Assembly: GCA_016188455.1 (NCBI GenBank)
Contig: JACPHR010000021.1
Location: 1 to 56,733, forward strand
Reading direction: 5' to 3'
DNA from: Candidatus Tayloriibacteriota bacterium
GTDB taxonomy: Bacteria; Patescibacteriota; Minisyncoccia; Phycocordibacterales; SIBU01
Length of the DNA: 56,733 bases
Shown one piece after another: positions 6,618 through 56,197 of this stretch. The position numbers and the translations under genes are program-made. Below the pieces are notes generated by a model. The model did not search any database. It was given only the letters and a program-made list of their open reading frames with translations, and was not told the DNA's origin. The number at the start of each line of letters is the position of its first letter. The stretch's first letter is position 1.

Positions 6618-6629
6618 ATTCACCTAGTT

Positions 6630-7574
6630 ATGGCACAAAAACTTTGGTCTGAAAACAAAGAGAAAAAGAAAGATGGACCAGACATCTCCAACACCGAGTG
6701 GGGTATGGTAATCTCGCTTCTTTTTATAGTTGACGGCATTCAAATCGGTCTTGACCTCTTGTTTCAAATAGGCGTTATTGTCAACCGCTTTATTGATGTC
6801 GTGGTGGGGTTCGCCTGGCCGACTTACCTCTACTTGCGCGGCGTGAACTTGAAAAGCGTGAAGGTGGTCGGTAGTATACTGCTGACTTTTTTCCTTGAGG
6901 AAATCCCCGATGTGGACGCTTTGCCGCTTTGGGGCGCCGACGGGCTCTTCGTGCTTTCTGTCACCAAAGCGGAAGAAAAAATTAAAGAGGAAACGGGGGT
7001 TGATGTTGAAAAAGCCGCGGCGCTTGCCGGAGGAGGGGGCACGGTGGAAAGTGAGGGGGGCGGTTTGGCCGCGGGCGAAGCGGCGGAAGCAGGCGGCGCG
7101 GCGGCCGAGGGGACGGCAGGGGCAAGAGGGGAAGCTGAAACTTTGGCAGAGGGTGAAGGGGTTGGAGCGGCTGAAGGAGGGGAAAGGGGCGGAGTGGAAG
7201 CCGAAGGGCCTCCTGGAGCGGCTGAAGGAGAAGGTGAAGAGGAAGAACAAAAAGAGGGAACGCAAGAACAAGCAAGAGAGAAAAAAGAAAAGGAGGGTGA
7301 GGAAACGCCGGAAGAAAAAAAGAAAAAAGAAGGAGAGGAAAAGGCTAAAGGGGAAGACAAGAAAAGACCTCGAGCTCGCGAGGAAGGTTTTGGTTTCGGC
7401 GGAGGTCAAGGGAGGAGGGAAGGCGCGGCGGGAGCGGGTTCCGACCCTCTCAATTTGCGAGGGGGGCCAGACGAAAGGCGAAAATCTGAAAAAGAGTCCG
7501 AGCGCTTGCACAGCAACCTTTTGGACCTGTCGCTCTCCTACGGCGAACGGAAGAAGCGGCAGGAAGAGGAGTAG
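6630..7574 (+). CDS. membrane protein with long Gly/Ala/Glu/Lys-rich disordered tail
   Basis: The N-terminal ~110 aa contain 3-4 hydrophobic helices. The remainder is GA-rich low complexity (GEAAEAGGAAAEG.., EEKKKKEGEEK). Operon context supports this frame; the other open frames here are artefacts of the purine-rich tract. Confidence 0.5.
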   Translation: MAQKLWSENKEKKKDGPDISNTEWGMVISLLFIVDGIQIGLDLLFQIGVIVNRFIDVVVGFAWPTYLYLRGVNLKSVKVVGSILLTFFLEEIPDVDALPLWGADGLFVLSVTKAEEKIKEETGVDVEKAAALAGGGGTVESEGGGLAAGEAAEAGGAAAEGTAGARGEAETLAEGEGVGAAEGGERGGVEAEGPPGAAEGEGEEEEQKEGTQEQAREKKEKEGEETPEEKKKKEGEEKAKGEDKKRPRAREEGFGFGGGQGRREGAAGAGSDPLNLRGGPDERRKSEKESERLHSNLLDLSLSYGERKKRQEEE

Positions 7575-7579
7575 ATAAA

Positions 7580-7690
7580 CATACCAATATACTAATGCAT
7601 ACAAATCTACGAATGGCTACTAATGTTACAACTGAGAGTCTGATTCGTAGTTATTAGTAGTATTAGTATAATTCGTATATTGGTATTGGT
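7580..7690. repeat. family-A inverted-repeat element (empty)
   Basis: Left arm CATACCAATATACTAATGCATACAAATCTACGAATGGCTACTAATG and right arm GATTCGTAGTTATTAGTAGTATTAGTATAATTCGTATATTGGTATTGGT. Confidence 0.75.
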
Positions 7691-7715
7691 GCCTGCCAAG
7701 TGATAAAATAGAACC

Positions 7716-8747
7716 GTGATGAAATACTTCTTTATTGCACTTTTGCTAATATCCGCCACATTAGTACCGAATGGTGTCTATGGACAGGCCTTCCAAAGCC
7801 TCGGCGGCGAGGCAAGTAATGTGACTGTGCGCACCGAACCGCCAGCGCCCGGGCCAAACCAGTTTGTCAGCGCCATTATTGAAAGTTACGCCACGGACCT
7901 CAACCGCGCCGACATTGCTTGGTTCCTCAACAACAAGTTGGAAAAGGAAGCCGTCGGCGCAAAAACCTTTCTGTTCAAAACCGGCAGAGCCGGCAGCGTC
8001 TCAAATATTTTGATTGTCATAAAAACGGCCGAAGGCGAAACTCTCCAGCAAGTTCTCAACATCCGGCCCGCGTCGCTTGACCTCGTCTGGGAGGCCCAGT
8101 CCTACACGCCGCCTTTCTACCGCGGCAAAGCCCTTTACCCCTATCAAGGAACGGTCAAGCTCGTGGCCATGCCGAATATCGTAACTGAAACCGGCGCGAC
8201 CGTAAGCGCTAAAAATCTTGTTTATACCTGGTCAGTGGATGGCGATGTTGTCACCAGACTTTCAGGCTACGGTAAGAATTTCATATTTTTTAACGGCTCT
8301 ATACCGCTCGGCCCCGCGACCATTGAAGTGGAAGCGGCGTCACTTGACAAAAAATACAAAGCCACGGGCTCGGTGACACTCAGCCCGCAGGGCTCGGAAG
8401 TTTTGGTTTATGAGGACAATCCGCTCTACGGCGTGCTTTACAATAAAGCGCTCGGGGGCAATGTCACGCTCCAAAACGAGGAGATTAAACTAGCCGGCAT
8501 CCCTTATTTCATCGGGGTGAAGGAGCGGGAGAACGCCGGTCTCGCTTACGAATGGCGGCTGAACAACGAGCTGGTCAGCGGCGGGGCCAAAAGCAGTCTG
8601 GCCTTCAAACAGAGCGGCGGCGCGGGCGGCACAGCCTTGGTCTCGCTTCAAATTTCCAATCCGGCTAAAATTTTCCAATTTGCCAACGTCAGTCTTTCCT
8701 TGTCCTTCGGCCAAAAATCAGCCCCCAACTTATTTGGAGCGCCATGA
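7716..8747 (+). CDS. secreted hypothetical protein
   Basis: Signal-peptide-like N-terminus MKYFFIALLLISATLVPNGVYGQA. Its stop overlaps the next start (ATGA at 8744-8747), indicating translational coupling with the pilin-like gene. Confidence 0.5.
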   Translation: MMKYFFIALLLISATLVPNGVYGQAFQSLGGEASNVTVRTEPPAPGPNQFVSAIIESYATDLNRADIAWFLNNKLEKEAVGAKTFLFKTGRAGSVSNILIVIKTAEGETLQQVLNIRPASLDLVWEAQSYTPPFYRGKALYPYQGTVKLVAMPNIVTETGATVSAKNLVYTWSVDGDVVTRLSGYGKNFIFFNGSIPLGPATIEVEAASLDKKYKATGSVTLSPQGSEVLVYEDNPLYGVLYNKALGGNVTLQNEEIKLAGIPYFIGVKERENAGLAYEWRLNNELVSGGAKSSLAFKQSGGAGGTALVSLQISNPAKIFQFANVSLSLSFGQKSAPNLFGAP

Positions 8748-9679
8748 GATTAAAAAAGCGTAAAAAAATATCAGAAAGGCTGGCGATATTCGGCTTCCTT
8801 ATTTTATTTTCCAGCATTTTGTCGGTGCCTGTGTTTTCAGCCTACGGCTTAGACTATGTGCCGCTGGCACCGATAGAGGGCACAACACTGACCTGCGCAC
8901 AACCTCCCTGCGGCACAAACTTAAGTTATTACCTCACCGGCCTATTTAAAGTCGGCATCGCCGTGGCGGGTGTTTTGGCGTTTCTGGTGATTGTCTGGGG
9001 CGGCTTCACCTATCTTTCCACCGATGTCATTACCGGCAAGGAGGAAGGCAAGGCGAGAGTGGAGCGCGCCTTAGGCGGCCTTATCATTGCCCTCGCGGCC
9101 TATATTCTTCTCAACACTATCAACCCGCAATTAGTTAAGCTTAACCTCAATTTCGGCCCGAGGGCGGAGCTGAGAGAGGGCTTGGCCAGACCAGCTGACC
9201 TTATTTCCGAGAACACGAATCTAAGAAGTATAGAAACGTTGACGGCGGATAGGGCTGAATTTAGAGGAATGAACGCGGCCCGGTTGAATCAAGAGATTCA
9301 GGCTTTGAACGCAGTTTCACAAACAAGAGGCTTAACAGCCGAGGAAGAAGAAAGACTGGTAGAGCTTGGCATAATAAGGGACGGTAGCACAGCAATGAAT
9401 AAAATTGACGAAGTACAAGGCACTATCACTTCTGGATTAGGTAGCTCTGGTTTACCCTCATCACTAGCCAGAGACGCGCGCGCTGCTTTAGAGCAGCTCC
9501 GGATTGAAGTCAACACACGCATAGCGGCAATGGCGGCTACCGGGGCAACCGTGGGACAAATGCAGGCAGTCCGAGACAGATTTAACACAGCAGCCAGATT
9601 GATAGAAGCCTGTATTACTTACAGAAAGAATATTGTAAATGACAATGCGCGGGCCAATTTCAATCGTTTCTGCAAATAA
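8744..9679 (+). CDS. T4SS pilin-like protein (TrbC/VirB2-type, CPR pilin family) with C-terminal extension
   Basis: Signal/TM region, a Cys pair (CAQPPC), then YLTGLFKVGIAVAGVLAFLVIVWGGFTYLSTD..GKEEGKARVERALGGLIIALAAYILLNTINP: two TM helices around a charged loop, as in VirB2/TrbC-like pilins. An extra ~180 aa follows. Confidence 0.6.
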   Translation: MRLKKRKKISERLAIFGFLILFSSILSVPVFSAYGLDYVPLAPIEGTTLTCAQPPCGTNLSYYLTGLFKVGIAVAGVLAFLVIVWGGFTYLSTDVITGKEEGKARVERALGGLIIALAAYILLNTINPQLVKLNLNFGPRAELREGLARPADLISENTNLRSIETLTADRAEFRGMNAARLNQEIQALNAVSQTRGLTAEEEERLVELGIIRDGSTAMNKIDEVQGTITSGLGSSGLPSSLARDARAALEQLRIEVNTRIAAMAATGATVGQMQAVRDRFNTAARLIEACITYRKNIVNDNARANFNRFCK

Positions 9680-9693
9680 CCTGTGTCAAAAAT

Positions 9694-9741
9694 ATGTCCA
9701 AAAAAACCGCCTTCATTATCATAATTATATTTGTCCTCCTT
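9694..9741 (+). repeat. direct repeat: duplicated first 16 codons of the gene at 10354
   Basis: ATGTCCAAAAAAACCGCCTTCATTATCATAATTATATTTGTCCTCCT matches 10354-10401 (ATGTCCAAAAAAACCGCCGCAATTATTATAATCGTCTTCGTCCTCCT) at about 40/48 positions. This copy hits TAA after 16 codons. Confidence 0.8.
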
Positions 9742-9748
9742 TAACTTC

Positions 9749-10249
9749 ATGACTGCGCCCAAACACAACTTTGCGTTTATAGATGCCCAGAATGTCCATT
9801 TGGGCATCCAGTCGCTCGGCTGGGAGCTTGATTGGGGACGATTCAGAGTGTATCTGCGGGATAAATACAAAGTAGCCGAAGCCTATTTGTTTCTTGGATA
9901 TGTACCTGACAATCAAAAACTGTACGAGTATTTGCAAAAATCCAGTTTCATTCTAATCTTCAAACCGCTAGTTTGGAACAAAGACGGAACCGTAAAAGGA
10001 AATTGCGATGCTGACTTAGTACTTCACACGATTCTTAAAATCAATGAGTACGATAAGGCAATTATTGTAACAAGCGACGGAGATTTTTACTCGCTCGTAA
10101 GACACCTTTACGAAAATGGTAAGCTACTTTTTGTCTTGAGTCCGTATGTAAAAACTTGCTCAAAACTTCTGCGAAGGGAAGCTAAAGAGAAAATTTACTC
10201 GATGGATAATCTGTGGCAGAAACTTGGACGAGAAAAGTTTAGAAAATGA
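9749..10249 (+). CDS. NYN (LabA-like, PIN-related) domain protein
   Basis: NFAFIDAQNVHLG...AYLFLGY...NCDADLVLH...AIIVTSDGDFYSLV is the typical acidic-residue pattern of NYN/LabA ribonuclease-like domains. Confidence 0.7.
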   Translation: MTAPKHNFAFIDAQNVHLGIQSLGWELDWGRFRVYLRDKYKVAEAYLFLGYVPDNQKLYEYLQKSSFILIFKPLVWNKDGTVKGNCDADLVLHTILKINEYDKAIIVTSDGDFYSLVRHLYENGKLLFVLSPYVKTCSKLLRREAKEKIYSMDNLWQKLGREKFRK

Positions 10250-10353
10250 AAACGCACCGCGCAGACACAAAGACTGCGAGATGCGTTTCCTTATGGATAC
10301 TGGAATAGTAGCAAACTGCAGAAAGAAGTCAAGCAAAAAGGTATAATAAACCC

Positions 10354-11589
10354 ATGTCCAAAAAAACCGCCGCAATTATTATAATCGTCTTCGTCCTCCT
10401 CATCGCCGGAGGTTTCCTGGCTTTCTATTTTTACGCCAACCAAGACCAGGACAACAACATCGTCGGGCCGGAGAGTCGCGGCAATATTTTCCCGACCAGC
10501 CCCGCCGCCGGAGGCGCCCAAACTCAGGGTGGCGCGGCGCCAAGCCCGCAACCGCCCGCCGAAAGCGGCACCCGGGCGGCACCGGTGCTTAAAGAACTTT
10601 CAGAGCGCCCTAGTGCTGGGGCGGTGGCGCTGGCCGCATCATCAACCGTACTCGTGCGTTTTGTTGAACGGGGCACGGGCAATGTCTATGAGGTCGGGCC
10701 GGCGCGAGATGGTGAAACCCGCCTCTCCAATACCACTGTGCCAAAAATAGAAGAGGTCTTGTGGCATAAGGACGGCAGAAAAGTCATCCTCCGTTACGCC
10801 GGCGATGACGGCGACTCCATCAAAACTTACAGCGCCTCTCTCGCCGCCAAAGCCTCAGGGGAAGCCGAGGACTCGCTCCAAGGAGCCTTTCTGACTGAAA
10901 ATATCCGGGCGGTGGCGGCAAATCCCGACCAAAACAAGCTGTTCTATCTCTTGCAAGACGCGGGCGGCAGCACCGGCATCATAGCAGAATTTGACGGCGC
11001 CAGAAAAACCCAAATCTTTGATTCGCTCCTACAGGAATGGCTTGTGGCATGGCCGACGCCAACGACTGTTGCCCTCACGAGCAAACCTTCCGCGGGGGTC
11101 CCGGGCTTTTTGTTTCTTTTGAACACCCGAACCGGCGCCCTGACTCGGGCCATATCGGGCATCAAGGGTCTAACGGCTCGGGTCAGCCCGACCGGCTCGC
11201 TGGTCCTTTATGGGGAAAGTCTCCCCCAAGGGCTTTCCTTAAAAATTTATCCTTTTAGTAACGCATCCTTGCGAGAAACGGCCGTGGCCACCCTGCCCGA
11301 AAAATGCCTTTGGTCAAAAAACGACCCGGGGGCTTTATACTGCAGCGTGCCGTCGTACCTGCCAACCGGCAACTACCCCGACGACTGGTACAAAGGGCTG
11401 GTGGCGTTCTCGGATGACATTTGGAAAATTGACAGCCGGACGGGGGCGGGAGAACTACTGGCAAAGCTTAAAGATAACACTGCAAAAGACATAGACGGCA
11501 TCAACCTGTTTATGAGCCCGAGAGAAGATTATCTTTTCTTCATCAACAAAAACGATTTTCATCTATGGAGTTTGCGGATTCAAAACTGA
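10354..11589 (+). CDS. membrane-anchored hypothetical protein (possible beta-propeller ectodomain)
   Basis: N-terminal TM helix (AAIIIIVFVLLIAGGFLAFYF), a Pro/Ala-rich linker and a ~330-aa beta-rich region. No family recognised. Confidence 0.5.
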   Translation: MSKKTAAIIIIVFVLLIAGGFLAFYFYANQDQDNNIVGPESRGNIFPTSPAAGGAQTQGGAAPSPQPPAESGTRAAPVLKELSERPSAGAVALAASSTVLVRFVERGTGNVYEVGPARDGETRLSNTTVPKIEEVLWHKDGRKVILRYAGDDGDSIKTYSASLAAKASGEAEDSLQGAFLTENIRAVAANPDQNKLFYLLQDAGGSTGIIAEFDGARKTQIFDSLLQEWLVAWPTPTTVALTSKPSAGVPGFLFLLNTRTGALTRAISGIKGLTARVSPTGSLVLYGESLPQGLSLKIYPFSNASLRETAVATLPEKCLWSKNDPGALYCSVPSYLPTGNYPDDWYKGLVAFSDDIWKIDSRTGAGELLAKLKDNTAKDIDGINLFMSPREDYLFFINKNDFHLWSLRIQN

Positions 11590-14475: not shown

Positions 14476-14588
14476 TCCCGTTAAAAGCTTACAAACAGCC
14501 CTTATAACATTTTTATGCCAAGCCGCGCAGATTTAATAAATAATAAAGCGTACGGAAACGACTGGGTCGTTCCCCGCTTCTAACGGGA
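14476..14588. repeat. family-E stem-loop element ending at the dnaA start codon
   Basis: Arms TCCCGTTAAAAGC (14476-14488) and GCTTCTAACGGGA (14576-14588). The last A is the A of the dnaA ATG. Confidence 0.55.
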
Positions 14589-15934
14589 TGGACAACGAGC
14601 AACTCTGGAAAAATGTGTTGGTGGAAATTGAACTGGCGGTCTCAAAAGCCAATTTCAATACCTGGTTTAAAGACACCCGGATCCTCAAGCAAGAGGAAGG
14701 GGTGGTCTTCGTATCGGTGCCCAACACCTTCGCCAAAGACTGGCTTTTCAACAAATACCACAAGATAATCATGAAAGCTTTGCGAAATCTGGCGGAGCAT
14801 ACCCGGGCGCTGGAATACGTCATTACCAAAGAAGAGCCGAAACAGAAAGAGCTTGAGCCGGCTCGGGGTGCTTTCTTGGCGGGCGCGCCGGAGCTGCCGC
14901 TTCAAGATTTTTACGTTGATAAAGACAACAATTTAAACCCCAGATACACTTTTGAATCTTTCGTGGTGGGGCCTTTCAACGAACTGGCCCACGCGGCGGC
15001 CCAAGCGGTGGTGAAAAAACCGGGCGCCGCCTACAACCCGCTTTTTATTTACGGCAACACCGGCCACGGCAAGACTCACCTTATCCAGGCCATCGGCAAT
15101 TACATTAAAAATCAAACCGCTGGCAAAAAAGTCTTTTACGTCACGTCGGAAAAATTCACCATTGATTACGTCAATTCGGTTCAAGCCAACAAGGCCAACC
15201 TCTTTAAAGAGCGGTACAGAAAATACGACGTGCTTATCATGGACGACATTCAATTTTTCTCCAACAAGGAACAAACCCAGGAGGAGCTATTTCATCTTTT
15301 CAATTCAATGTACGAGAGCAACAAACAAATCGTTTTTTCCTCCGACAAGCACCCCAACTTTATCCCTAATCTGGCGGACCGCTTGAAATCCCGCTTCGCG
15401 GCCGGCATGATTGTGGATATTCCGACCCCCGATCGCGAATCCCGCTTGGCCATTCTCAAAACAAAAGCGCGGCTTTCTGCCGTGTCCATCGCCGATGAAG
15501 TGCTGGAGCATTTGGCAACCACGATTGACGGCAACATCCGCGAACTGGAAGGCATGCTCAATGTTTTGGTCTGCCAATCACAGCTCAAAGGCAAAGAGCT
15601 CGGCTTAGGTGAAGTGAAACATCTCATTAAGAACAGCGCCAAACCGAAAAAGGCGGTGTCGGTAAAGGAGGTGACCAAGGCCGTGGCCAGCTTCTTCAAT
15701 ATTGAGGAAGAGGATATCTACGAAAAGACCCGCCGAAAGGAAGTGGTAAAGCCCCGCCAGCTCGTGATGTACATCCTGCGGGAAGATTTCAGCGTGTCTT
15801 ACCCTTTGATCGGCCAAAAGCTAGGCGGCCGCGACCACACGACAGTTATTCATTCCTGCGAGAAAATAAAAAATGAGTTGAAGTTAAACGCGGCGCTCGG
15901 CCAAGAGATTGACCAGATTCGAACCTTGCTCTGA
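14588..15934 (+). CDS. dnaA: chromosomal replication initiator DnaA
   Basis: AAA+ Walker A GNTGHGKTHL, Walker B VLIMDDIQF and the C-terminal DNA-binding signature SYPLIGQKLGGRDHTTVIHSCEKI. Confidence 0.95.
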   Translation: MDNEQLWKNVLVEIELAVSKANFNTWFKDTRILKQEEGVVFVSVPNTFAKDWLFNKYHKIIMKALRNLAEHTRALEYVITKEEPKQKELEPARGAFLAGAPELPLQDFYVDKDNNLNPRYTFESFVVGPFNELAHAAAQAVVKKPGAAYNPLFIYGNTGHGKTHLIQAIGNYIKNQTAGKKVFYVTSEKFTIDYVNSVQANKANLFKERYRKYDVLIMDDIQFFSNKEQTQEELFHLFNSMYESNKQIVFSSDKHPNFIPNLADRLKSRFAAGMIVDIPTPDRESRLAILKTKARLSAVSIADEVLEHLATTIDGNIRELEGMLNVLVCQSQLKGKELGLGEVKHLIKNSAKPKKAVSVKEVTKAVASFFNIEEEDIYEKTRRKEVVKPRQLVMYILREDFSVSYPLIGQKLGGRDHTTVIHSCEKIKNELKLNAALGQEIDQIRTLL

Positions 15935-21711: not shown

Positions 21712-22206
21712 CTACGCTCGGCTTGCCATTGTCAAATGTTTTTCTCGCGCGAAGTAGGTAAGACCCAAGGCGATGGCGTCGTACTCGTCGTCCTCTTTGA
21801 TTTTTTTCTTGACCGCCAAGAGTTTCTCCACCATAAATTTCACCTGCTCTTTGGTGCATCGGCCGTAACCGGTAACCGCCACTTTCACTTCAAGCGGCGT
21901 GTACTCGGCGACTTGGAGTCCGGCTCGCGACGCTTCGTAGATAATGGCGCCGCGGGCTTCGGAGACGAGCATGGCGGTTTTTTGGTTGCCGGCGAAGAAA
22001 AGTTTTTCAATAGCGAGGTATTTGGGCTTGAATTTTTTTATAACGCGCACGATTTCTTTTCCAAGCACCGCCAAGCGAGCAGGGTGTTTCTCCTCTCGCA
22101 ATGTCTTGAAGCATTCCGAAAACAGTAAAACTTCCTTGACGGATATTTTTTCCAGCACGGCCAACCCTATTTTTTCATAGCCAGGATCCACTGCTAAAAT
22201 TCTCAT
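21712..22206 (-). CDS. ruvC: crossover junction endodeoxyribonuclease RuvC
   Basis: MRILAVDPGYEKIGLAVLE.., ..AIEKLFF.., ..DDEYDAIALGL.. are the RuvC catalytic acidic motifs. Confidence 0.9.
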   Translation of the reverse strand: MRILAVDPGYEKIGLAVLEKISVKEVLLFSECFKTLREEKHPARLAVLGKEIVRVIKKFKPKYLAIEKLFFAGNQKTAMLVSEARGAIIYEASRAGLQVAEYTPLEVKVAVTGYGRCTKEQVKFMVEKLLAVKKKIKEDDEYDAIALGLTYFAREKHLTMASRA

Positions 22207-22305
22207 AAGAGAATTTTAGCAGTAACCGGCGACAATTAACAATTGACCTTTGACAGTCAAATATTAAAGATTAATGGTCAAAAGCAGAAGTTTTCATAAA
22301 GGCAG

Positions 22306-22872
22306 TCATTCCGCGTTTATGAAAACTTCCTGCACCTCGTCATTCTCCTCAAGTTCCTCCACCAGTTGCTGAAGCCTTTTCAAATCGGTTTCTTCCAGGG
22401 GTATAGTGATTGTCGGTTTCCATTTCCCGTAATTATTCGTGTCATTCGCGCCCATTAGTGCATTGGTGTCGTGTTTTTTGAATGCCCACAGGGCGCTTCC
22501 TTGTCCGGCGAGCGTGAAGCCGTGCTTCCCCAGAATAAATTTAATTTCCTGAGCCGCCTTGTTGCGGTTCTCGGTCAGGGCTTCAATGATAAGCGCGCAT
22601 CCGCCCGGGCCATAAGCCTCGTATGTAATTCCTTCAAGCACCGCAGAATTATCAGTGGCTTTTTTAATCGCCCGCTCGATATTATCATTTGGCATGTTCT
22701 CCGCCTTAGCTCGCTCAATCATGGCCTTTAGCCCGGGTGATTCTCGATTGCCTTTGGCTTTTTTCGCCTCCGCCGCTATCAGTTTGCCGTACTTAGAAAA
22801 TGCCCTGCTCTTCTGAGCGTCGGTTTTTTCCTTTTGTCTTTTTATCTGCGACCATTTATTATGCCCGGACAT
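22306..22872 (-). CDS. yebC: YebC/PmpR-family transcriptional regulator (short form)
   Basis: MSGHNKWSQIKRQK..D..K...F.K........A.., ENMPNDNIERAIKKA, YEAYGPGGCALIIEALTENRN. The C-terminal domain is shortened and contains a repeat-like insert (see findings). Confidence 0.85.
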   Translation of the reverse strand: MSGHNKWSQIKRQKEKTDAQKSRAFSKYGKLIAAEAKKAKGNRESPGLKAMIERAKAENMPNDNIERAIKKATDNSAVLEGITYEAYGPGGCALIIEALTENRNKAAQEIKFILGKHGFTLAGQGSALWAFKKHDTNALMGANDTNNYGKWKPTITIPLEETDLKRLQQLVEELEENDEVQEVFINAE

Positions 22873-23015
22873 GGAATAGTTGATAGTAAGTAGCCTTAGC
22901 TCACCTTATTAGCAGAGCTTTTCAAGTTTTCACCAGGACTTCCCTTTGTCGTTTCTCTTTTTTGAATTACAGTGCATTCTGATGTTCTCAAGAACATCAG
23001 AACATGCTTGAAATT

Positions 23016-23213
23016 TCAATTTGAGAGCCGTTCTACCGCTTCTCGGATTTTTTCCTGCCACTGTCCGGTATGAACAAAGCGCCTAACATTTGGGATATCT
23101 CTTAAAAGTTGGCCTCGCGTTCTTACTTTTTTTGCTATAGCAGCCCAAGTTGTCTCAAGAATACGGTCAACCGCTTCTTCGTCAAGCGATTCAGGTTTTA
23201 CATTAACGCGCAC
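23016..23213 (-). CDS. hypothetical protein (start uncertain; frame open further upstream)
   Basis: 65-aa ORF with a GTG start. The same frame stays open well upstream and overlaps 23264..23608. A hairpin at 22978-23003 follows the stop. Confidence 0.3.
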   Translation of the reverse strand: MRVNVKPESLDEEAVDRILETTWAAIAKKVRTRGQLLRDIPNVRRFVHTGQWQEKIREAVERLSN

Positions 23214-23263
23214 GGTAAGCGGAATGGCGAAACCGGCATTGCCAATCCATTCGCAATCAATTA

Positions 23264-23608
23264 CTACAACCGAATTCTTTCCGCATGTTGCTTCGGAGTT
23301 TCTTGGGCATTTGCACCAGATTCTTTTTCTTTGGTGTCCAGCGGCGCGCTCGGGACGGATTTTTCTTCTACGGCGACCCTAAACACTGCTATATCTTTAG
23401 CTTCTTTGGCCGTTTGTTCTCTGACGGAGACGGCGAGACCATGCTCCTGGCAGAAGTCTTGAAACGCGTTCGCTTCTTCTCTTGTGCTGAAAGTAAGGGT
23501 GCCGGTATGAACGTCAATGTTGTCCGCCGAGCCGAGGTCGCGGGCCAAGGCGAGCATTTGTTTTGTTTCCGTCTTTTCAATTTCCGGTGTTGAGATTTGT
23601 TCTCGCAT
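23264..23608 (-). CDS. hypothetical protein
   Basis: 114-aa ORF between ruvB and yebC on the same strand. No family recognised. Confidence 0.35.
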   Translation of the reverse strand: MREQISTPEIEKTETKQMLALARDLGSADNIDVHTGTLTFSTREEANAFQDFCQEHGLAVSVREQTAKEAKDIAVFRVAVEEKSVPSAPLDTKEKESGANAQETPKQHAERIRL

Positions 23609-23681
23609 AGAGATACATTATCACACCTCGTTTGTGTGTTGCAACCCCTACCTTCCTTTGCGGCGCATAGAGAGGTGTGAC

Positions 23682-24734
23682 TTACAAAAGCGTCCGTTTG
23701 ATGCCGTTTAGATGTTCAAAAGCTTTGGGAGTGGCGGTGCGGCCGCGCGCCGTGCGTTCAATGAGGCCGAGCTGCAGGAGGTAGGGTTCGTGCACCTCTT
23801 CAATGGTTGATTGTTCTTCTGAGAGCGCGGCCGAGAGAGTGTTCAGTCCCACCGGCCCGCCGCCGAATTTTTCAATAATGGTTGAAAGCAGCGCCCGATC
23901 AGAGGGTTGAAGTCCAAGCGCGTCCACTCCCAAAAGTTCAAGTGCCTTTTCGACGGTTTGCATATCAAGCACGCCGCGTTGTATCTGCGCAAAGTCGCGA
24001 CAACGTTTGAGAAGGTAATTGGCGGTGCGCGGGGTAAATCTGCTTCTCTTGGCGATTTCTTTTGACGCCGTTTTTTCCACTTCCACTCCCAGAATTTTAG
24101 CCGAGCGCTTGATAATCTCTTCAATTTCTTCCGGCGTATAAAATTCCAGCCGAAAAACGCCGCCGCCGAAGCGGGAGCGAAGAGGGGAGGAGAGAAGCGC
24201 GATGCGAGTGGTGGCCGCAATCAAAGTAAAAGGAGGCAATTCAAGCTGAATGGTTCGGGCTGATGGCCCTTTGCCGATAATAATATCAAGCTTTCCCGAT
24301 TCCATGGCGGGGTAGAGAATTTCCTCAATGGCTTTATTCAAACGATGAACTTCGTCAATAAAAAGCACGTCGCCCGGCGAGAGATTGGTGAGTACTGACG
24401 CAAGATCGCCGACTTTTTCAATAGCGGGGCCCGATGTGACTTTGATTTGGGCGCCGATTTCTTTGGCAATGAGATGGGCGAGGGTGGTTTTGCCAAGACC
24501 GGCTGGGCCGTAGAAGAGCAGATGCTCCGGCGGGTGTTTTCGCTCGCCGGCGGCGGTCAAAAGTATCCGCAGATTTTCCTTAATGTTTTTTTGGCCGATA
24601 TAATCGTTCCAACGGCTCGGTCTAAGGGCCTGGTCGAGGAAGATTTCTTCACCCAAAAGGGCTTTTTCCGCCGGGGGGTCCTCGATTTTTTCACTCTTTT
24701 TGCTCACACGAGACCTGTTAAGGATTCTTGACAT
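23682..24734 (-). CDS. ruvB: Holliday junction branch migration helicase RuvB
   Basis: Walker A GPAGLGKTTLA, Walker B LFIDEVHRL, sensor regions and winged-helix C-terminus (PRGTPRIANRLL-type: TPRTANYLLKR). Confidence 0.95.
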   Translation of the reverse strand: MSRILNRSRVSKKSEKIEDPPAEKALLGEEIFLDQALRPSRWNDYIGQKNIKENLRILLTAAGERKHPPEHLLFYGPAGLGKTTLAHLIAKEIGAQIKVTSGPAIEKVGDLASVLTNLSPGDVLFIDEVHRLNKAIEEILYPAMESGKLDIIIGKGPSARTIQLELPPFTLIAATTRIALLSSPLRSRFGGGVFRLEFYTPEEIEEIIKRSAKILGVEVEKTASKEIAKRSRFTPRTANYLLKRCRDFAQIQRGVLDMQTVEKALELLGVDALGLQPSDRALLSTIIEKFGGGPVGLNTLSAALSEEQSTIEEVHEPYLLQLGLIERTARGRTATPKAFEHLNGIKRTLL

Positions 24735-35633: not shown

Positions 35634-35724
35634 AGAAACTCCTCCGTTTTGTTGTGATTACAGTCGTTTCCGCTAGCCGGGCTATTTTTAGCACCCCAGG
35701 GAACAAAAGTCAATTTTGCCTTTA

Positions 35725-35758
35725 TTCTACTATCCAAGCGATCGCCTGGATAGTAGAA
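35725..35758. repeat. family-F palindrome centred on GCGATCGC
   Basis: TTCTACTATCCAAGCGATCGCCTGGATAGTAGAA. The second copy at 48614-48647 has a paired A/T to T/A exchange. Confidence 0.7.
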
Positions 35759-40422: not shown

Positions 40423-40507
40423 GGAAGGGTCGGATAATGGTATTCCACCGGTCTTGAAAACCGGCGCCGGCAACGGCTTGCGAGTTCGAGTCTCGCCCCT
40501 TCCGCCA
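40423..40507 (+). tRNA. tRNA-Ser (anticodon TGA), long variable arm, CCA encoded
   Basis: Hand fold: GGAAGGG TC GGAT AATGGTA TTCC A CCGGT CTTGAAA ACCGG (variable arm CGCCGGCAACGGCTT) GCGAG TTCGAGT CTCGC CCCTTCC G CCA. Confidence 0.85.
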
Positions 40508-40723: not shown

Positions 40724-42151
40724 ATGGCGATAATTTATTTGGTACAATCCACTCTTGATAAAACAAAAATCTACATCGGAAAAACCGATAGATCTTTGGC
40801 GGAAAGAAGAAAAGAACATGAGGATAAAGCAGCTAATCATAGTTCTACTAAGTTTCATTGCGAATTATTAAGGAAAGGGCTTGATAATTGGGAGTGGCGG
40901 ATACTTGAAACTCTCGATCCTGCTGCAAATGTTTTTGAAAGAGAAAAATATTGGATGCAAAAATTTGATGCACTTCCAATTGATCTATTAAATACAGCAT
41001 CAACAAATAGCAACACTGAAACGAAGCGTAAAAAAGCAGATACTCTCGCTCGTGCTGTTGGAGGTAAGAATGTTTGGAAAAGCGCCAGTGCCAAGAAATG
41101 GATGATATTGTCTGGAAAATTGAAACCGCTAGAGAATACTGAAACAAAGATTAAGTATGAAGGATTGCTTGATGCTGAGCGAAAAACTGGAGAAACAAGG
41201 GGTGCGATCAAAAAATCCTGTGATACAGGAATACCAACTTCTCGTGGCAAGCTTTATGCGTGGTTAGATATCAAGGGAAATCTAAAACTAACCGAAAACC
41301 ATATTAAGAAAGTTCCTAGGTTAAAGAGAGTTAAAAACAAAACCACGGGAGAAATTTATAATTCATTAGCAGATGCTGCCAAAAACATCGGCGTATCAAT
41401 GAACATAATTAGAGACGCATGTAATGGTAAATACAAAACTACAAAAGGTCAGATAGTTTGTTTTTTGGATGACAATGGGAACGAAGTATTAACCGAAACT
41501 CACAAAAATACCTTACTTCGGTTAGAAGAAAAAAAGAAAATTGGATTTGTGGCTTGGCGTATAGAAGATAAAAATCGCAGTAAACCTTATATATTTGACT
41601 CAATTCTTGAATTGATAAACTCAATAAAAAGGGACTCTGGCGAGGAGCTTTCTCGGAGTCATATCCTTGATATTTGCAAGGGTAAAAGACAGCACGACCA
41701 AGGTTGGAGAGTAGCATACTACGACAAAGAAAAGAAAGAACCTATTTTCAGAAACAAGCATCTACTACCAATTAGGGAAAAAATTCGTGGGGTAATCTGT
41801 TTAAATGATAATAAAGTTTTTTCAAATGCAACTGAGGCTGGCAAATTTTACAATTTAGAAAGTGGCCAAATACTGCTTTGTTGCGCCCGGAAATTAAAAA
41901 GTACAGGGAGAAATTTAAAAACAAAATACAAGTTTGCACACACCGACAAAGAAGGAAAACCGATCTTAACCCCATTACACAGTGAATCAGATTCCTGGCT
42001 CGGCAAGAAAATATTTTGCCCCGGGTTGGGAAAAGAATTTAGATCTGTGGCAGAATTTTGCAGAGAAACAAATATCCCAGCGAAACGTGTAAGTAAATAC
42101 CTAAAAGGGAAAAATATTGATCTTGGTGGCCTAACACTTGTTCAGGTGTAA
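40724..42151 (+). CDS. GIY-YIG homing-endonuclease-like protein with about five NUMOD1/HTH-like DNA-binding repeats
   Basis: The N-terminus has IIYLV..(11)..IYIGKT, R..EH and E.EKYWM (GIY-YIG). Repeated ~35-aa modules follow (..F.S...A.K..G.S...I...C.GK..). The gene is markedly AT-rich relative to its surroundings. Confidence 0.7.
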   Translation: MAIIYLVQSTLDKTKIYIGKTDRSLAERRKEHEDKAANHSSTKFHCELLRKGLDNWEWRILETLDPAANVFEREKYWMQKFDALPIDLLNTASTNSNTETKRKKADTLARAVGGKNVWKSASAKKWMILSGKLKPLENTETKIKYEGLLDAERKTGETRGAIKKSCDTGIPTSRGKLYAWLDIKGNLKLTENHIKKVPRLKRVKNKTTGEIYNSLADAAKNIGVSMNIIRDACNGKYKTTKGQIVCFLDDNGNEVLTETHKNTLLRLEEKKKIGFVAWRIEDKNRSKPYIFDSILELINSIKRDSGEELSRSHILDICKGKRQHDQGWRVAYYDKEKKEPIFRNKHLLPIREKIRGVICLNDNKVFSNATEAGKFYNLESGQILLCCARKLKSTGRNLKTKYKFAHTDKEGKPILTPLHSESDSWLGKKIFCPGLGKEFRSVAEFCRETNIPAKRVSKYLKGKNIDLGGLTLVQV

Positions 42152-47802: not shown

Positions 47803-47936
47803 AAAAACTTAAAAGTTAAAAATCAAGATTTAAAATTGAGTACCCAGCAATCTAACATGTCTCTTGGTAAAAAACAAGGTCTCAAAATTTTTAATTTTAA
47901 TCTGTCATTTTTCACTTTGATATTTACATTTTGAAT
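47803..47936. repeat. family-C inverted-repeat element (empty) upstream of ruvA
   Basis: The right arm CTCAAAATTTTTAATTTTAATCTGTCATTTTTCACTTTGATATTTACATTTTGAAT is nearly identical to 6569-6617. The left arm is AAAACTTAAAAGTTAAAAATCAAGATTTAAAATTGAG. Confidence 0.7.
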
Positions 47937-47954
47937 TATGTTACTATGTATATC

Positions 47955-48530
47955 ATGATTTCCCATCTTAAAGGAAGAATAATGGACGCGGGAGAGCGAT
48001 TTGTAGTTTTGGAAACCAACGGGGTAGGCTACAAAGTTTTCGTGACGTCGGAGACTCTGCGCGTCCTGCAAAAGCCGTCCGGCGAAACGAGCCTGTGGAC
48101 TTATCTCGCCGTGCGGGAAAACGCTCTGGACCTCTACGGCTTCACGGCCAAAGACGAACTTGAATTTTTTGAACTGCTCATTACCGTCTCCGGCATCGGT
48201 CCGAAAACCGCCCTTGGCATTTTAAGCGTTACCACTATAAAAAATCTCCGCCAGGCCATCGCCTCGGGCGAAACGGCGCATCTGACAAAAGTGTCCGGCA
48301 TTGGCAAAAAAGTGGCGGACAAAATCGCGCTTGAGCTCCGCGACAAGCTTGATTTTCTAGAGAGCGAAAAAGATACAGGCGACATGCGCGACGAATCGGA
48401 CACCATTGAAGGACTCAAGGCTTTAGGCTACAGCGAGCGCGAGGCGCGAGAGGCGCTGAAGAAACTGCCGAAAAAAATCTCTGGCACGAGCGAAATGGTG
48501 AAGCAAGCGTTAAAATTGCTCGGGGAATAA
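47955..48530 (+). CDS. ruvA: Holliday junction DNA helicase subunit RuvA
   Basis: MISHLKGRI......VVLETNGVGYKV, HhH motifs (LLITVSGIGPKTALGIL, KVSGIGKKVADKIALEL) and C-terminal domain III (GLKALGYSEREAREAL). Confidence 0.9.
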   Translation: MISHLKGRIMDAGERFVVLETNGVGYKVFVTSETLRVLQKPSGETSLWTYLAVRENALDLYGFTAKDELEFFELLITVSGIGPKTALGILSVTTIKNLRQAIASGETAHLTKVSGIGKKVADKIALELRDKLDFLESEKDTGDMRDESDTIEGLKALGYSEREAREALKKLPKKISGTSEMVKQALKLLGE

Positions 48531-48613
48531 CGGCGAAGAGTTTTGGGAAATAAATATCCTCTGAACTTAAGCTGACACTTTACTCTGAAAGCATAATTTT
48601 GTCCAAGAGAATA

Positions 48614-48647
48614 TTCTACTATCCTAGCGATCGCCAGGATAGTAGAA
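48614..48647. repeat. family-F palindrome centred on GCGATCGC (second copy)
   Basis: TTCTACTATCCTAGCGATCGCCAGGATAGTAGAA. Confidence 0.7.
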
Positions 48648-48704
48648 TAAAAGAAAGGCCTCGCGACGAATCGCAAGGCCGTTGTGAATGAAAGAGTACG
48701 ATGC

Positions 48705-48929
48705 TTAGAGGTCGAATTCTCCTCCTTTGACACCCTTAATGAAGGCGGTCCATTCATTATGAGTGAAGAAAAGAGTTTTCCTGTGCTCGTCCTTACTATC
48801 GCGCAGGGCAACTCCCTGTTCCTTCATAGCCACCTGAACGCACCAGTGATCATGTCTGCGGTTGGTCCAGGAGGATGTACGAAAATCAGAATCTTGGACG
48901 GGGAATTCCTTTTTTTCTTTGTTTTTCAC
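48705..48929 (-). CDS. DUF397-like small protein
   Basis: FRTSSWTNRRHDHWCVQVA....GVALRDSKDEHRKTLFFTHNEWTAFIKGVKGGEFD matches the W.KSS.S...CVEVA...V.VRDSKDP....L.F....W..F....K.GEFD pattern I recall for actinobacterial DUF397 proteins. Confidence 0.6.
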   Translation of the reverse strand: MKNKEKKEFPVQDSDFRTSSWTNRRHDHWCVQVAMKEQGVALRDSKDEHRKTLFFTHNEWTAFIKGVKGGEFDL

Positions 48930-49090
48930 GCTAAGTCCTTTCTATGTTTTTGTTGAACTGCCAATATAAAACTAGCAGAAAATGTCGCGAAAAGATGCAT
49001 TTCTGATATAATTGAGGGCATAGAGCGGGAATATCCTATAATCATAGGCACACTTAAGAGATTTAATATCCGACCTTTTCGCCGACAAGA

Positions 49091-49822
49091 ATGCTTGAAC
49101 ATCACTTAAAAGCAGCCGGATTGAACGAAAAAGAAGCCAGCGTGTACCTGGCGATTCTTGAACTGGGCGAATCATCCGTCCAGAGAATCGCCGATAAGGC
49201 GGGTATAAAAAGAACGACAGTATATGATGTCATTGAATCTCTGAAGGAAAAAGGACTGATCGGCAATACTCTTAAAGGCAAGCGGCGAAAATTCTTTGTG
49301 GACGATCCACGCGGAATTTTAAGGATGCTTGACGAGAAGAGAAATAAAATTGAGAAAATCATTCCTGATCTGCTTTCTAAGTCGGGAGCGTTCGATAAAA
49401 AACCCCGTTCCCGTTTCTTCGAGGGAATCGAGAGCATGAAGGAGATCTATCATGACATTCTCAAGCACTCCGATGCTCCAATAAAATCCTGGATGACTGA
49501 AGCATCCCTTGATATGTTTGATCGGGATTTCATTGAATTCTTCAACTCAAATCGCATTAAAAACAAAATATGGGCGCAGATGATCGGCCCTGACACGCCG
49601 CGACTGCGGGAATTTCAAAATCAAGATGCGAAATTCTTGAGAAAAACAATTCTGGACCGGCACAAAGTGTTTCCTTTCGGAGTAGAAATTACTTTATACG
49701 GCAATGGGTCAATAGGCATGATTTCCTTTGAGGAAAAAATCGGACTGATTTTTGAAAGCCAGAAACTCTCTTTGGCTTTGCAAAATGCGTTCGACGGGCA
49801 TTGGACATTCCTTGGAGGGTAG
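49091..49822 (+). CDS. TrmB-family HTH transcriptional regulator
   Basis: L...GLNEKEASVYLAILELGESSVQRIADKAGIKRTTVYDVIESLKEKGLI is the TrmB-type winged helix, followed by a C-terminal effector-like domain. Confidence 0.65.
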   Translation: MLEHHLKAAGLNEKEASVYLAILELGESSVQRIADKAGIKRTTVYDVIESLKEKGLIGNTLKGKRRKFFVDDPRGILRMLDEKRNKIEKIIPDLLSKSGAFDKKPRSRFFEGIESMKEIYHDILKHSDAPIKSWMTEASLDMFDRDFIEFFNSNRIKNKIWAQMIGPDTPRLREFQNQDAKFLRKTILDRHKVFPFGVEITLYGNGSIGMISFEEKIGLIFESQKLSLALQNAFDGHWTFLGG

Positions 49823-49850
49823 TCAACAGGAATAAAAGAAAAACGGCCCC

Positions 49851-49993
49851 GCGACGAATCGGACGCCATTGAAGGACTCAAGGCTTTAGGCTACAGCGAG
49901 CGCGAGGCGCGAGAGGCGCTGAAGAAACTGCCGAAAAAAATCTCTGGCACGAGCGAGCGCATCAAGCAGGCGCTGAAAATTTTAGGGAAATAA
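49851..49993 (+). pseudogene. orphan duplicate of the ruvA 3' end (domain III fragment)
   Basis: 143 nt align to 48388-48530. The first 106 nt have a single mismatch and the last 37 nt are diverged (SERIKQALKILGK* versus SEMVKQALKLLGE*). The terminator at 49997-50021 follows. Confidence 0.8.
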
Positions 49994-49996
49994 TAA

Positions 49997-50021
49997 ACGC
50001 CAGGTGTGGTTAACCTGGCGT
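49997..50021 (+). terminator. terminator hairpin after the ruvA-3' duplicate
   Basis: ACGCCAGGTGTGGTTAACCTGGCGT followed by a TT tail (weak). Confidence 0.5.
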
Positions 50022-50039
50022 TGATCATGCAATGGGGTA

Positions 50040-50357
50040 TCATTGCATGACAATATACTGTTCTGGCATTATCGTTTTGGGCGTAATCAAGCGGGTGGCA
50101 ACGAACCGGTCCCCTTTCTTGAGGCTGGGGAACCTTTGTTGGTCAATCTTCGATGTCACCACAATGTAACCAAGCAACGTGTCCTTGAGAACCGAAGTTG
50201 CGGTGAGGACATGGTTGGACCCAATAACGGTGTACTCCATGTCGGGATGCAAAACCCGGACGGCATGACTGGCAGCAACGAAATTCAGAAAAATGAGTTC
50301 CGCCGTGAGCGCGAGACAGAGGCCTTTGAGTAGTGTTTTGAGTACTATTTTTTCCAT
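50040..50357 (-). CDS. hypothetical protein with N-terminal hydrophobic segment
   Basis: The start is taken at MEKIVLKTLLKGLCLALTAELIFLNFVAA. 105 aa, no family recognised. Confidence 0.35.
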   Translation of the reverse strand: MEKIVLKTLLKGLCLALTAELIFLNFVAASHAVRVLHPDMEYTVIGSNHVLTATSVLKDTLLGYIVVTSKIDQQRFPSLKKGDRFVATRLITPKTIMPEQYIVMQ

Positions 50358-50485
50358 AACTGTACTTTCGAGGTTGAGGTTTATCAAAAACGAAGCCATT
50401 TTTAAGAGCTTCCACAGAAAGGATAGCATACCCAATAAGTATTGTCAATACCTTATAAAACCTTTATTTAGACTATTATTACGCT

Positions 50486-51774: not shown

Positions 51775-52035
51775 TTACTGCTCGTTATACTGATGCAAAA
51801 TTGACGCAACCAAGGTCTGATACGGCAGGCCTTTTTCTGCCGCTTTCACTTTGAGTTTATGGAGGTCCCGTTCCGCCAAACGAATATTGATATTTTTTGA
51901 CCTATTGGAAGAACCGCGCGCGTAAGAACGGTAGCGTTCCATTTCCTTCTTCACATTCGGCACAGACTTAAAACTGCCCCGTTCAATGGTTTCAAGCAGC
52001 TCCTTTTCCTCTTTGTCCAGTTCGTAGTATTTCAT
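51775..52035 (-). CDS. brnA: BrnA/CopG-type RHH antitoxin
   Basis: LDKEEKELLETIERGSFKSV... and NINIRLAERDLHKLKVKAAEKGLPYQTLVASILHQY are typical of antitoxins paired with BrnT. Confidence 0.65.
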   Translation of the reverse strand: MKYYELDKEEKELLETIERGSFKSVPNVKKEMERYRSYARGSSNRSKNINIRLAERDLHKLKVKAAEKGLPYQTLVASILHQYNEQ

Positions 52036-52045
52036 AATTTTGTTT

Positions 52046-52327
52046 TTATTTTTTACGCTTCACTATATATTTCTTTTTCGCTTTGCGGCTCGGGATAATT
52101 GTTTTAAGAAAAATCCTTTCTTTATCCTCCGCGAAAGGCACCAGATACGCGTAGCCGCCGACTGCCACCACAAAAACTTTTTGTCCCGGATACCGCCTAG
52201 TATTGGGGTTCGGAATAATATCGAGCAGCCCCCCTTCCTCAAGCGCTACCCGAATGTCTTCAAATCCGATTTCCCGTTCGCGCCGAAGCCGTTCGTTCTT
52301 CTCCGCGTTCCAGTCAATATATTTCAT
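52046..52327 (-). CDS. brnT: BrnT-like (DUF497) ribonuclease toxin
   Basis: The start is taken at ATG 52327. IDWNAEKNERLRREREIGFEDI.. and ..RIFLKTIIPSRKAKKKY resemble the BrnT pattern F.WD..KN..N..KHG.SFEE...RIISAR.A.K.E...Y. The toxin lies upstream of the antitoxin with a 10-nt gap. Confidence 0.55.
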   Translation of the reverse strand: MKYIDWNAEKNERLRREREIGFEDIRVALEEGGLLDIIPNPNTRRYPGQKVFVVAVGGYAYLVPFAEDKERIFLKTIIPSRKAKKKYIVKRKK

Positions 52328-52458
52328 TATACAGCCAATGATATACAATCCATATGAATTGTCAATATATACGTTGTGGATAAAACCGAGATGGAGAGTG
52401 TCCATCTGCGGCTTTTTAAAACTTGCGGCTAAAAGTTATAAGCTATAAACTTTTCGAT

Positions 52459-55609: not shown

Positions 55610-55660
55610 CACGCCAGAAAAATCTTCACTGCTGAAGATTTTTCTGGACGTGCGCGGGAC
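55605..55660 (+). repeat. 56-nt tRNA trailer hairpin, copy 1 (after tRNA-Lys)
   Basis: GCGCACACGCCAGAAAAATCTTCACTGCTGAAGATTTTTCTGGACGTGCGCGGGAC has one mismatch to 56142-56197. It starts inside the acceptor 3' strand. Confidence 0.85.
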
Positions 55661-56146: not shown

Positions 56147-56197
56147 CACGCCAGAAAAATCTTCACTGCTGAAGATTTTTCTGGACGTGCACGGGAC
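56142..56197 (+). repeat. 56-nt tRNA trailer hairpin, copy 2 (after tRNA-Val)
   Basis: GCGCACACGCCAGAAAAATCTTCACTGCTGAAGATTTTTCTGGACGTGCACGGGAC. Confidence 0.85.

Follow-up and report, generated by a model that had tools for sequence, protein, structure and literature searches.

A two-gene insert in the 3' end of ruvA of a parcubacterial genome and its possible origin by insertion-duplication

How can two genes come to lie inside the end of ruvA, with ruvA left intact and a second gene end standing downstream? The question is raised by contig JACPHR010000021.1 of a Candidatus Tayloriibacteriota bacterium (assembly GCA_016188455.1), positions 1 to 56,733 (56.7 kb) of which form the window analysed here. 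The names carried by the RuvA relatives place the host among uncultivated Parcubacteria/Paceibacteria near 'Candidatus Taylorbacteria'. A segment of 1356 nt (1.36 kb; 48494-49849), which sequence comparison identifies as foreign, sits inside the ruvA end, and it holds two genes only, one for a DUF397 protein and one for a TrmB-type regulator. The insertion is recent and the ruvA terminus is regenerated, while the original terminus stands orphaned behind the insert. At about even confidence, we favour an insertion-duplication in which a single crossover brought in DNA of another Parcubacteria lineage by way of ruvA homology on one side and microhomology on the other. The features of ruvA and its two ends are as follows.

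47955-48530, plus strand: ruvA, intact but chimeric (191 aa; Pfam RuvA_N, HHH_5 and RuvA_C).
48387-48493, plus strand: first copy of a 107-nt repeat (R), beginning with the 12-mer CGCGACGAATCG (48387-48398), which encodes R-D-E-S.
48494-48530, plus strand: foreign ruvA tail, ..EMVKQALKLLGE*, which arrived with the insert; 23/37 nt identical to the orphan tail.
49850-49956, plus strand: second copy of R (107 nt), the 5' portion of the orphan ruvA fragment.
49957-49993, plus strand: native ruvA end, left as an orphan, ..ERIKQALKILGK*, and matching L003, the closest relative, at 32/37 nt.
49996-50022: 10-bp hairpin 3' of the native ruvA stop (-18.7 kcal/mol on the minus strand, -18.0 kcal/mol on the plus strand).

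The ruvA end recurs downstream as a direct repeat of 144 nt (48387-48530 and 49850-49993, spaced by 1463 nt), which was the sole long repeat of the neighbourhood in a direct-repeat search. An earlier note, made from the sequence alone, had described this recurrence with coordinates shifted by 1 nt, and its division of the repeat into a near-identical first part and a diverged RuvA-like tail followed by a hairpin (49996-50022) proved correct. The first 107 nt (R) are identical at 106 positions (counted by hand), and the lone mismatch (A/G at 48403/49866) makes one codon read Thr in ruvA but Ala in the orphan. Of the final 37 nt, 23 agree, an abrupt change from the preceding 106/107 (Fisher p = 7.8e-9). 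A chance origin of the repeat is ruled out by the repeat search, the counts of the 12-mer and the Fisher test. The hairpin is placed between the orphan and a convergent open reading frame (ORF) of 131 aa (50040-50435, minus strand). This ORF, which occupies the interval from the orphan tail to the Mur ligase gene, matched no family; it is also called as a gene in Logan contigs, and no counterpart was present in the relatives.

Comparison with relatives distinguishes the native terminus from the acquired one. RuvA of the window is 85% identical in amino acid sequence to the nearest RuvA (P0002). Over the last 37 nt, the orphan matches the closest relative (L003) at 32 positions, whereas the tail attached to ruvA matches L003 at 24; against every relative's tail examined, the attached tail scores 24-26/37. 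The relatives' RuvA proteins end in SERIKQALK(I/L)LGK, as does the translation of the orphan (...RDESDAIEGLKALGYSEREAREALKKLPKKISGTSERIKQALKILGK*), which lacks a start codon, while the terminal E of the attached tail (SEMVKQALKLLGE) recurs in none of 120 homologs. The differences in this 12-codon tail are mostly synonymous, which points to another lineage as its source and not to rapid divergence after duplication. Thus, the ruvA body, R and the orphan tail constitute one coherent native gene: the body and the first repeat copy are native by comparison with relatives, whereas the last 37 nt, the attached 12-codon tail, are foreign and have another origin. Annotations of this RuvA should accordingly treat its C-terminus as xenologous. 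The idea that the 3' region serves as an unusually conserved homology anchor was rejected, given that exact-match runs are spread across the whole gene. Elsewhere in the window, ruvC, yebC and ruvB are grouped on the minus strand (21712-24734); this group lies 23 kb away from ruvA, and hence there is no ruvAB operon here.

A gene end in direct repeat could also be of local making, through a tandem duplication of the ruvA end in a genome that already held the DUF397 and TrmB-type genes, with one copy diverging afterwards. TrmB-type genes are indeed found near ruvA at 3 of 82 other TrmB loci. However, the divergence is not gradual, with one difference in 107 nt followed by 14 in 37, mostly synonymous, and it is the selected copy, on ruvA, that has diverged, whereas the unselected orphan is conserved. 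The backbone of close relatives, moreover, is without the cassette. A purely local duplication is scarcely credible on these grounds, and the order of the 12-mers described below also speaks against it.

The relatives show that the order S20-ruvA-Mur ligase is ancestral. The locus of the closest relative (L003), which has the nearest RuvA (P0002), reads methyltransferase, S20 (minus strand), ruvA, Mur ligase and Fpg, with a single ruvA end and without the DUF397/TrmB cassette. In an 81% relative (L114/L115), the slot between ruvA and the Mur ligase gene is empty, with a 62-nt spacer; the two genes are directly adjacent in L009, L010, L022 and L023; and in more distant Parcubacteria ruvA either adjoins the Mur ligase gene or is followed by Fpg. 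The synteny comparison that the earlier note had called for therefore shows ruvA-Mur ligase without the cassette and, together with the 32/37 and 24/37 matches and the protein tails, upholds an insertion that restored ruvA and orphaned its original terminus. L003 carries other genes in the slot, encoding Cas1 (TIGR00287, E = 7e-68) and a 102-aa protein (6638-7959), with no orphan tail. A few kilobases upstream of this Cas1 segment lie terminase, ParB-methylase and transposase genes. Further along the window, genes for a CopG/BrnA-like antitoxin and, with weak similarity, a BrnT-like toxin (51775-52405, minus strand) lie between the Mur ligase gene and Fpg; this pair is absent from L003, L114 and L116, and so it is another small accessory insertion in the neighbourhood.

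Between the two repeat copies lie, in order, a 126-nt spacer (48531-48656), a terminator termed q, the DUF397 gene, an intergenic region and the TrmB-type gene, followed by the right junction, termed h.

48612-48649: palindrome of 38 nt within the spacer that follows the new ruvA stop, with a second copy at 35721-35758.
48657-48680, minus strand: terminator q of the DUF397 gene, GGCCUUGCGA-UUCG-UCGCGAGGCC followed by UUUCUUUUAUU, found in a terminator scan.
48705-48929, minus strand: gene for a small DUF397 (BldB-like) protein of 74 aa (PF04149, E = 2e-13).
48930-49090: divergent intergenic region of 161 nt, in which both cassette promoters are presumed from position only.
49091-49822, plus strand: gene for a TrmB-type winged helix-turn-helix (HTH) regulator of 243 aa (PF01978, E = 2e-16).
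49831-49867: right junction h, where a q-type terminator, of which the A-rich tract, the left stem and the loop are kept, runs into ruvA sequence.

The gene content suggests a donor within the Parcubacteria. Both family assignments of the earlier note are confirmed by the Pfam matches listed above. Its view of DUF397 as an actinobacterial trait does not hold for this protein: it has 1238 homologs (best 63% identity), and the closest named ones belong to Paceibacterota and Zambryskibacteria. The TrmB-type family is widespread in Parcubacteria (106 protein clusters and 348 metagenome loci). Only the N-terminal HTH of the window protein matches Pfam (residues 6-68), and the protein reaches 27-33 bits with the NCBIfam TrmB models, whose cut-offs are 500-650; it thus carries a TrmB-type HTH without the archaeal sugar-sensing architecture, and is not a TrmB equivalog. 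The cassette is lower in GC than its surroundings (0.427 vs 0.51-0.52 in ruvA and the Mur ligase gene). Its top TrmB homolog (67%) occurs in L006, a genome whose RuvA is only 53% identical, whereas in the genomes with RuvA of 75-85% identity no TrmB homolog exceeds 53%. Conservation with L006 also extends over about 45 nt upstream of the TrmB-type gene, and in L006 the TrmB gene follows ruvA at a distance of 1.2 kb and reads in the same direction. This layout makes plausible a donor with a TrmB gene 3' of its own ruvA, in which case the foreign tail would be accounted for as DNA that flanked the cassette there.

The two cassette genes most likely form a small regulatory module, comprising a winged HTH regulator and a BldB-like protein with divergent promoters. 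The earlier suggestion of an antitoxin-like pair, and with it a toxin-antitoxin function, is unsupported. DUF397 genes adjoin none of the 82 other TrmB-homolog loci searched, the partner is divergently oriented and not an XRE protein, and the known XRE-DUF397 pairs are themselves regulators. The neighbour of the nearest DUF397 homolog is not an HTH protein, and the small divergent genes that lie beside TrmB in L006 and L007 proved not to encode DUF397. In annotation, the two genes should be read neither as operon partners of ruvA nor as a toxin-antitoxin pair. The TrmB-type frame continues after its TAG stop into the orphan (49820-49996); this read-through was judged a coincidence (1 in 3), as the gene ends at the normal C-terminus of its family. 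A search for the same cassette between different flanks, another check proposed in the earlier note, found it nowhere else in the databases searched.

The two ends of the insert differ in kind. At the left, native sequence switches sharply to foreign sequence at 48493/48494, inside ruvA homology. The right end involves the 12-mer CGCGACGAATCG, which occurs only three times in the 56.7 kb: in ruvA (48387, copy p), in q (48662) and in h (49850). The third copy of the junction motif reported in the earlier note is thus real, and the copies in q and h share a left flank, AATAAAAGAAA..GGCC (from 48646 and 49831). In the alignment of the three copies, h has this left flank (AATAAAAGAAA..GGCC.) in common with q and its right flank in common with ruvA, to which it is fused at the 12-mer (49850-49861). 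Terminator q, with its 12-mer at 48662-48673, folds at -18.9 kcal/mol (z = -5.5). On the minus strand h reaches -12.2 kcal/mol (z = 0.14) and folds no better than shuffles; it keeps the U-tract, the loop and one stem half of q, the other half being replaced by ruvA sequence. The intact form would read GGCCCCGCGA-CGAA-TCGCGGGGCC. Thus, h is another q-type terminator, which was interrupted where it shares 12 nt with the ruvA codons R-D-E-S. Repeated terminator and promoter-like motif families are common in this genome, and two similar terminators flanking a donor gene pair are consequently unremarkable. As a further example, tRNA-Lys and tRNA-Val are each trailed by a virtually identical hairpin terminator of ~50 nt (55611-55660 and 56148-56197). 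The order p, q, h is unfit for an unequal crossing-over between p and q, a further point against a local duplication. Of the site-specific insertion proposed in the earlier note, the insertion stands; the site-specificity is not demonstrated, a terminator broken at a 12-nt microhomology being the footprint of illegitimate recombination and not of a dedicated attachment (att) site.

The donor's gene order and the sequence of events are inferred, as is any part played by host RecA-type recombination or by a circular intermediate. The favoured single-crossover origin would be a Campbell-type event, or its equivalent by homology-facilitated illegitimate recombination (HFIR) or template switching, with no recombinase encoded by the insert. 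As in an insertion-duplication, one junction is homologous (106/107 then 23/37) and the other is a 12-nt microhomology. The incoming DNA would have been one uninterrupted stretch that lay behind ruvA in the donor, running from the ruvA end through the spacer, the DUF397 gene and the TrmB-type gene to the terminator of the gene that comes next. At the left end, joining by homology inside ruvA would have produced the abrupt switch at 48493/48494; on the right, the donor's terminator hairpin would have joined ruvA at the chance 12-nt identity CGCGACGAATCG. The right join point precedes the left junction by 107 nt, and this stretch was duplicated as a result. Because the incoming fragment held a stop codon, ruvA stayed intact with a foreign 12-codon tail and its native end was orphaned; the native tail and its hairpin would have been left behind as a promoterless orphan. 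Such a result is classically expected when a fragment from the 3' terminus of a gene integrates. Possible routes are a circularised fragment recombining in R, HFIR, or template switching, the last of which would directly explain the near-identity of the two R copies. The two near-identical 107-nt repeats would also make the insertion reversible by homologous recombination, yielding a 1463-bp circle and a restored native ruvA. The donor expected from this account has a ruvA ending in ..SEMVKQALKLLGE, followed by DUF397 (minus strand), TrmB (plus strand) and an intact GGCCCCGCGACGAATCGCGGGGCC hairpin.

Several observations weigh against this account. A genome combining the foreign tail with the cassette was not found in the databases searched; the tail motif SEMVKQALK led to P0048, which was rejected as a donor, since it has the motif but matches at 25/37 nt only and continues into a GH15 gene. 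A donor ruvA as diverged as its tail, integrated in Campbell fashion, predicts diverged R copies, and the 106/107 identity would then need later gene conversion or the template-switch route. The spacer palindrome (TTCTACTATCC..GCGATCGC..GGATAGTAGAA), a near-perfect one that could be a repetitive extragenic palindromic (REP)-like terminator or an operator, has its only other copy in this same genome, between tRNA-Arg(TCT) and pyrD, with one base pair altered on both sides; this would be odd for DNA from a distant donor. The integrated state depends on assembly over a repeat of 89-107 nt, and a de Bruijn graph fits a circle plus an empty site equally well. Finally, q and h are readable as inverted-repeat core sites of an unknown recombinase, and a second lineage (L116-L118) carries a different cargo at the same ruvA end, as a site-specific system predicts.

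The last two observations belong to the rival account in which the insert is a site-specific cassette without its own integrase, that is, a remnant resembling a cis-mobilizable element (CIME) or a satellite served in trans. The conserved ruvA 3' end would be its attB, attP would bring the replacement ruvA end, a tyrosine or serine recombinase would act from elsewhere, and the 144-nt repeat here and a 74-nt repeat in the second lineage would represent attL and attR. The second lineage is represented by a 78% relative (L116), in which a RelB-like gene and a short YafQ-like toxin gene stand at the ruvA end, followed by an orphan ruvA tail and the native spacer. Its direct repeat of 74 nt (5505-5578 and 6226-6299) is 92% identical, the differences clustering at the 3' end, and its cassette is again lower in GC than the flanks (0.378 vs 0.47-0.50). 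The structure is found in three independent assemblies (L116-L118; two from JGI and one from Logan), which indicates that such architectures are real. The slot between ruvA and the Mur ligase gene is thus variable in this clade, occupied by differing small modules of which two come with a duplicated ruvA end, and the ruvA 3' end is suggestive of a recurrent entry point for foreign DNA. A possible third breakpoint in the same stretch of ruvA may be seen in a 694-nt ENA contig (P0040), where a RuvA of 78% identity has 18 final residues after ..KKLPKEI that are unrelated to RuvA (LHYKKENARLEEKLKSLS).

Recurrence at the same gene end keeps the site-specific account alive, and other features suit it. 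The target is regenerated and the native end orphaned, as at tRNA and protein-gene att sites; the repeats of the window and of L116 overlap in ...AAACTGCCGAAA(A/G)AAATCTC...; and q and h hold inverted repeats of 8-10 bp around a short spacer. CIMEs of 1.2-13 kb without an integrase are well documented in the 3' ends of housekeeping genes (PMC7563491). The left ends of the repeats, however, differ between the two lineages, that of L116 starting 70 nt further into ruvA (codon L168 vs R145), a comparison of the two cassettes revealed no shared sequence, and the right junction of the window is a truncated copy of a functional terminator and not a conserved arm. The recurrence also has an alternative account, since cassettes lying downstream of ruvA would always travel with a ruvA tail.

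As the earlier note had stated, no integrase or transposase is present: a Pfam scan of 42 ORFs of the window detected no integrase, resolvase or transposase domain, and no recombinase was called within 5 kb in L116. The locus resembles an integrase-borne element in its flanking target-end repeats, regenerated ruvA and displaced native end, but no tyrosine or serine recombinase or DDE transposase lies beside the putative att site. It resembles a CIME in having direct repeats that could serve as attL and attR and in lacking genes for recombination, conjugation and mobilisation; derivation from an integrative and conjugative element (ICE) or an integrative and mobilizable element (IME) should have left remnants, accretion or an intact relative, and 48494-49849 is free of conjugation, phage and ICE/IME remnants. 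At ruvA, the 18 other relatives' loci contained neither orphan tails nor integrase-bearing elements. The IMG/VR viral contigs gave no relevant match for the TrmB family, the RuvA family or two conserved ruvA-tail DNA patterns, and a related intact element at ruvA was found neither there nor in the loci examined, a limited genome sample. A transposon or insertion sequence was rejected in view of the lack of a transposase, the duplication of 107 nt, which is not short, and the lack of terminal inverted repeats at the block borders in a repeat search. On balance, the site-specific cassette is the main rival, an unlikely but serious contender.

Type IV pilus genes (PilB/PilM) of the window and genes resembling a type IV secretion system (T4SS) are circumstantial for DNA uptake. 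The T4SS-like module (46-11589) includes a PrgI family gene (2986-3414), a PD-(D/E)XK nuclease gene (3445-3846) and a VirB4/TraG-type ATPase gene (4681-6501) among large ORFs without a Pfam match, 3-14 kb from dnaA (14588-15934). A free-standing ORF for a GIY-YIG / NUMOD-like endonuclease (475 aa; 40724-42151) adjoins tRNA-Ser (40423-40507).

It could also be that the cassette is not integrated at all, and that an assembler threaded a separate 1463-bp circle or a tandem array into a native ruvA through the repeat of 89-107 nt. In an independent k=31 Logan assembly (SRR12113390), one contig (L001) covers 48464-49956 at 100% identity, including both junction motifs. Its length is 1463+30 nt with identical 30-nt ends, i.e. 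a loop in the k=31 graph, and it is unbroken where the ruvA body should merge into the repeat, which could mean that in that sample the loop was present in more copies or the ruvA body was poorly covered. In addition, the Logan contigs with the Mur ligase gene, from four samples, all start exactly at the R end of the second repeat copy, and no contig spanning the repeat was seen. Those with S20 are interrupted before it, at a promoter-like motif that is itself repeated, and are uninformative on the repeat. Such AT-rich intergenic repeats of 45-60 nt, which lie upstream of genes, form two families (47885-47932, 6567-6614 and 2926-2973; 3859, 4633, 7637, 31888, 33208 and 53417), and Logan contigs end at both; in one sample, the copy upstream of ruvA joins different sequence (L111). 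Against a free circle, 1.46 kb without a replication gene is not credible as a stable replicon. A native-tailed RuvA, expected to be ~97% identical, is absent from a collection of 5.8 billion sequences, in which the window RuvA forms a one-member cluster, and hence the protein collection contains no empty-site allele of the same species. Furthermore, the same architecture was assembled straight through in the three sister-lineage assemblies, where the repeats have diverged enough to be resolved. We consider this explanation highly improbable; a circle, should there be one, would at most be the same element after its excision.

Insertion-duplication of a donor's ruvA-linked DNA thus remains the account that we prefer. 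A broader and quite speculative extension, to which we give rather little credence, is a class of tiny integrase-less Parcubacteria cassettes for which a copy of the conserved ruvA 3' end would serve as a portable arm of attachment. Recombination with the ruvA of the host, via host RecA or a recombinase acting in trans, would let them in and out, and they would always restore ruvA and move different cargos, for example regulators or toxin-antitoxin pairs, between lineages. If this were true, portable ruvA-arm cassettes would provide a simple route of gene flow in minimal genomes with few classical mobile elements. Little is understood of how genes flow horizontally into the tiny genomes of Patescibacteria, from which few classical mobile elements have been described. 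This locus offers a clean and recent footprint in an essential-type repair gene, with both junctions legible base by base. Should the pattern be general, orphan gene tails could serve as a cheap map of insertions and their mechanism in uncultivated bacteria.

The nearest known counterpart of the cargo is found in Streptomyces, where XRE-DUF397 pairs act as regulators and not as toxin-antitoxin systems (PMC6262351; PMC10364602). The window pair resembles these (Scr1/Scr2; BldB paralogs; PMC10294661) in placing a small DUF397 protein beside an HTH regulator. It differs in that the partner is of the TrmB type and divergent, not upstream in an operon, and in that the pairing is conserved at no other locus examined. 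The slot itself recalls the minimal mobile elements of Neisseria, whose exchange proceeds by double crossover in the two flanking genes without producing a duplication. There is a fixed site here too, between ruvA and the Mur ligase gene, holding DUF397/TrmB, RelB/YafQ, Cas1 with the 102-aa gene, or nothing; unlike in Neisseria, a gene end, that of ruvA, is present in duplicate at two of the three occupied slots. End replacement of this sort is also seen with phage 21 and e14 in icd of Escherichia coli, where an alternative 3' end of ~165 bp supplied by the element replaces the native end, which is orphaned downstream. These elements encode their own integrase and are many kilobases long, whereas the ruvA insert has two genes and no integrase.

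In streptococci, ICEs, IMEs and integrase-less CIMEs occupy the 3' ends of rpsI, fda, rpmG, rplL and guaA (PMC7563491), and a protein-coding target is therefore less unusual than the earlier note had supposed. The likeness extends to the regenerated gene end, the flanking direct repeats, the small cargo-only elements (1.2-13 kb) and the different cargos per strain at the same site. CIMEs, however, are decay products of ICEs and IMEs with integrase-bearing kin at the same site, and none were found at ruvA, where the junction is a broken terminator and the two lineages differ in the point from which the repeats (107-144 nt and 74 nt) start.

The closest parallels are Campbell-type insertion-duplication and HFIR, the latter documented with microhomologies of 3-10 bp in naturally transformable bacteria (de Vries & Wackernagel 2002 and Prudhomme et al. 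2002, as summarised in PMC6382021). Shared with both are the one homologous and one microhomology junction, the lack of an element-borne recombinase, the trapping of foreign DNA by an anchor, and the conversion of a gene 3'-end fragment into an intact gene plus a 5'-truncated copy. As a rule, HFIR removes DNA from the recipient. At ruvA, by contrast, 107 nt were duplicated and the microhomology measures 12 nt, so that a circular intermediate, a sister copy or template switching would be needed. HFIR has been followed by experiment, whereas the ruvA case is a natural footprint in uncultivated Patescibacteria; taken as an insertion-duplication at a gene 3' end, the locus belongs to a kind of event that is already known.

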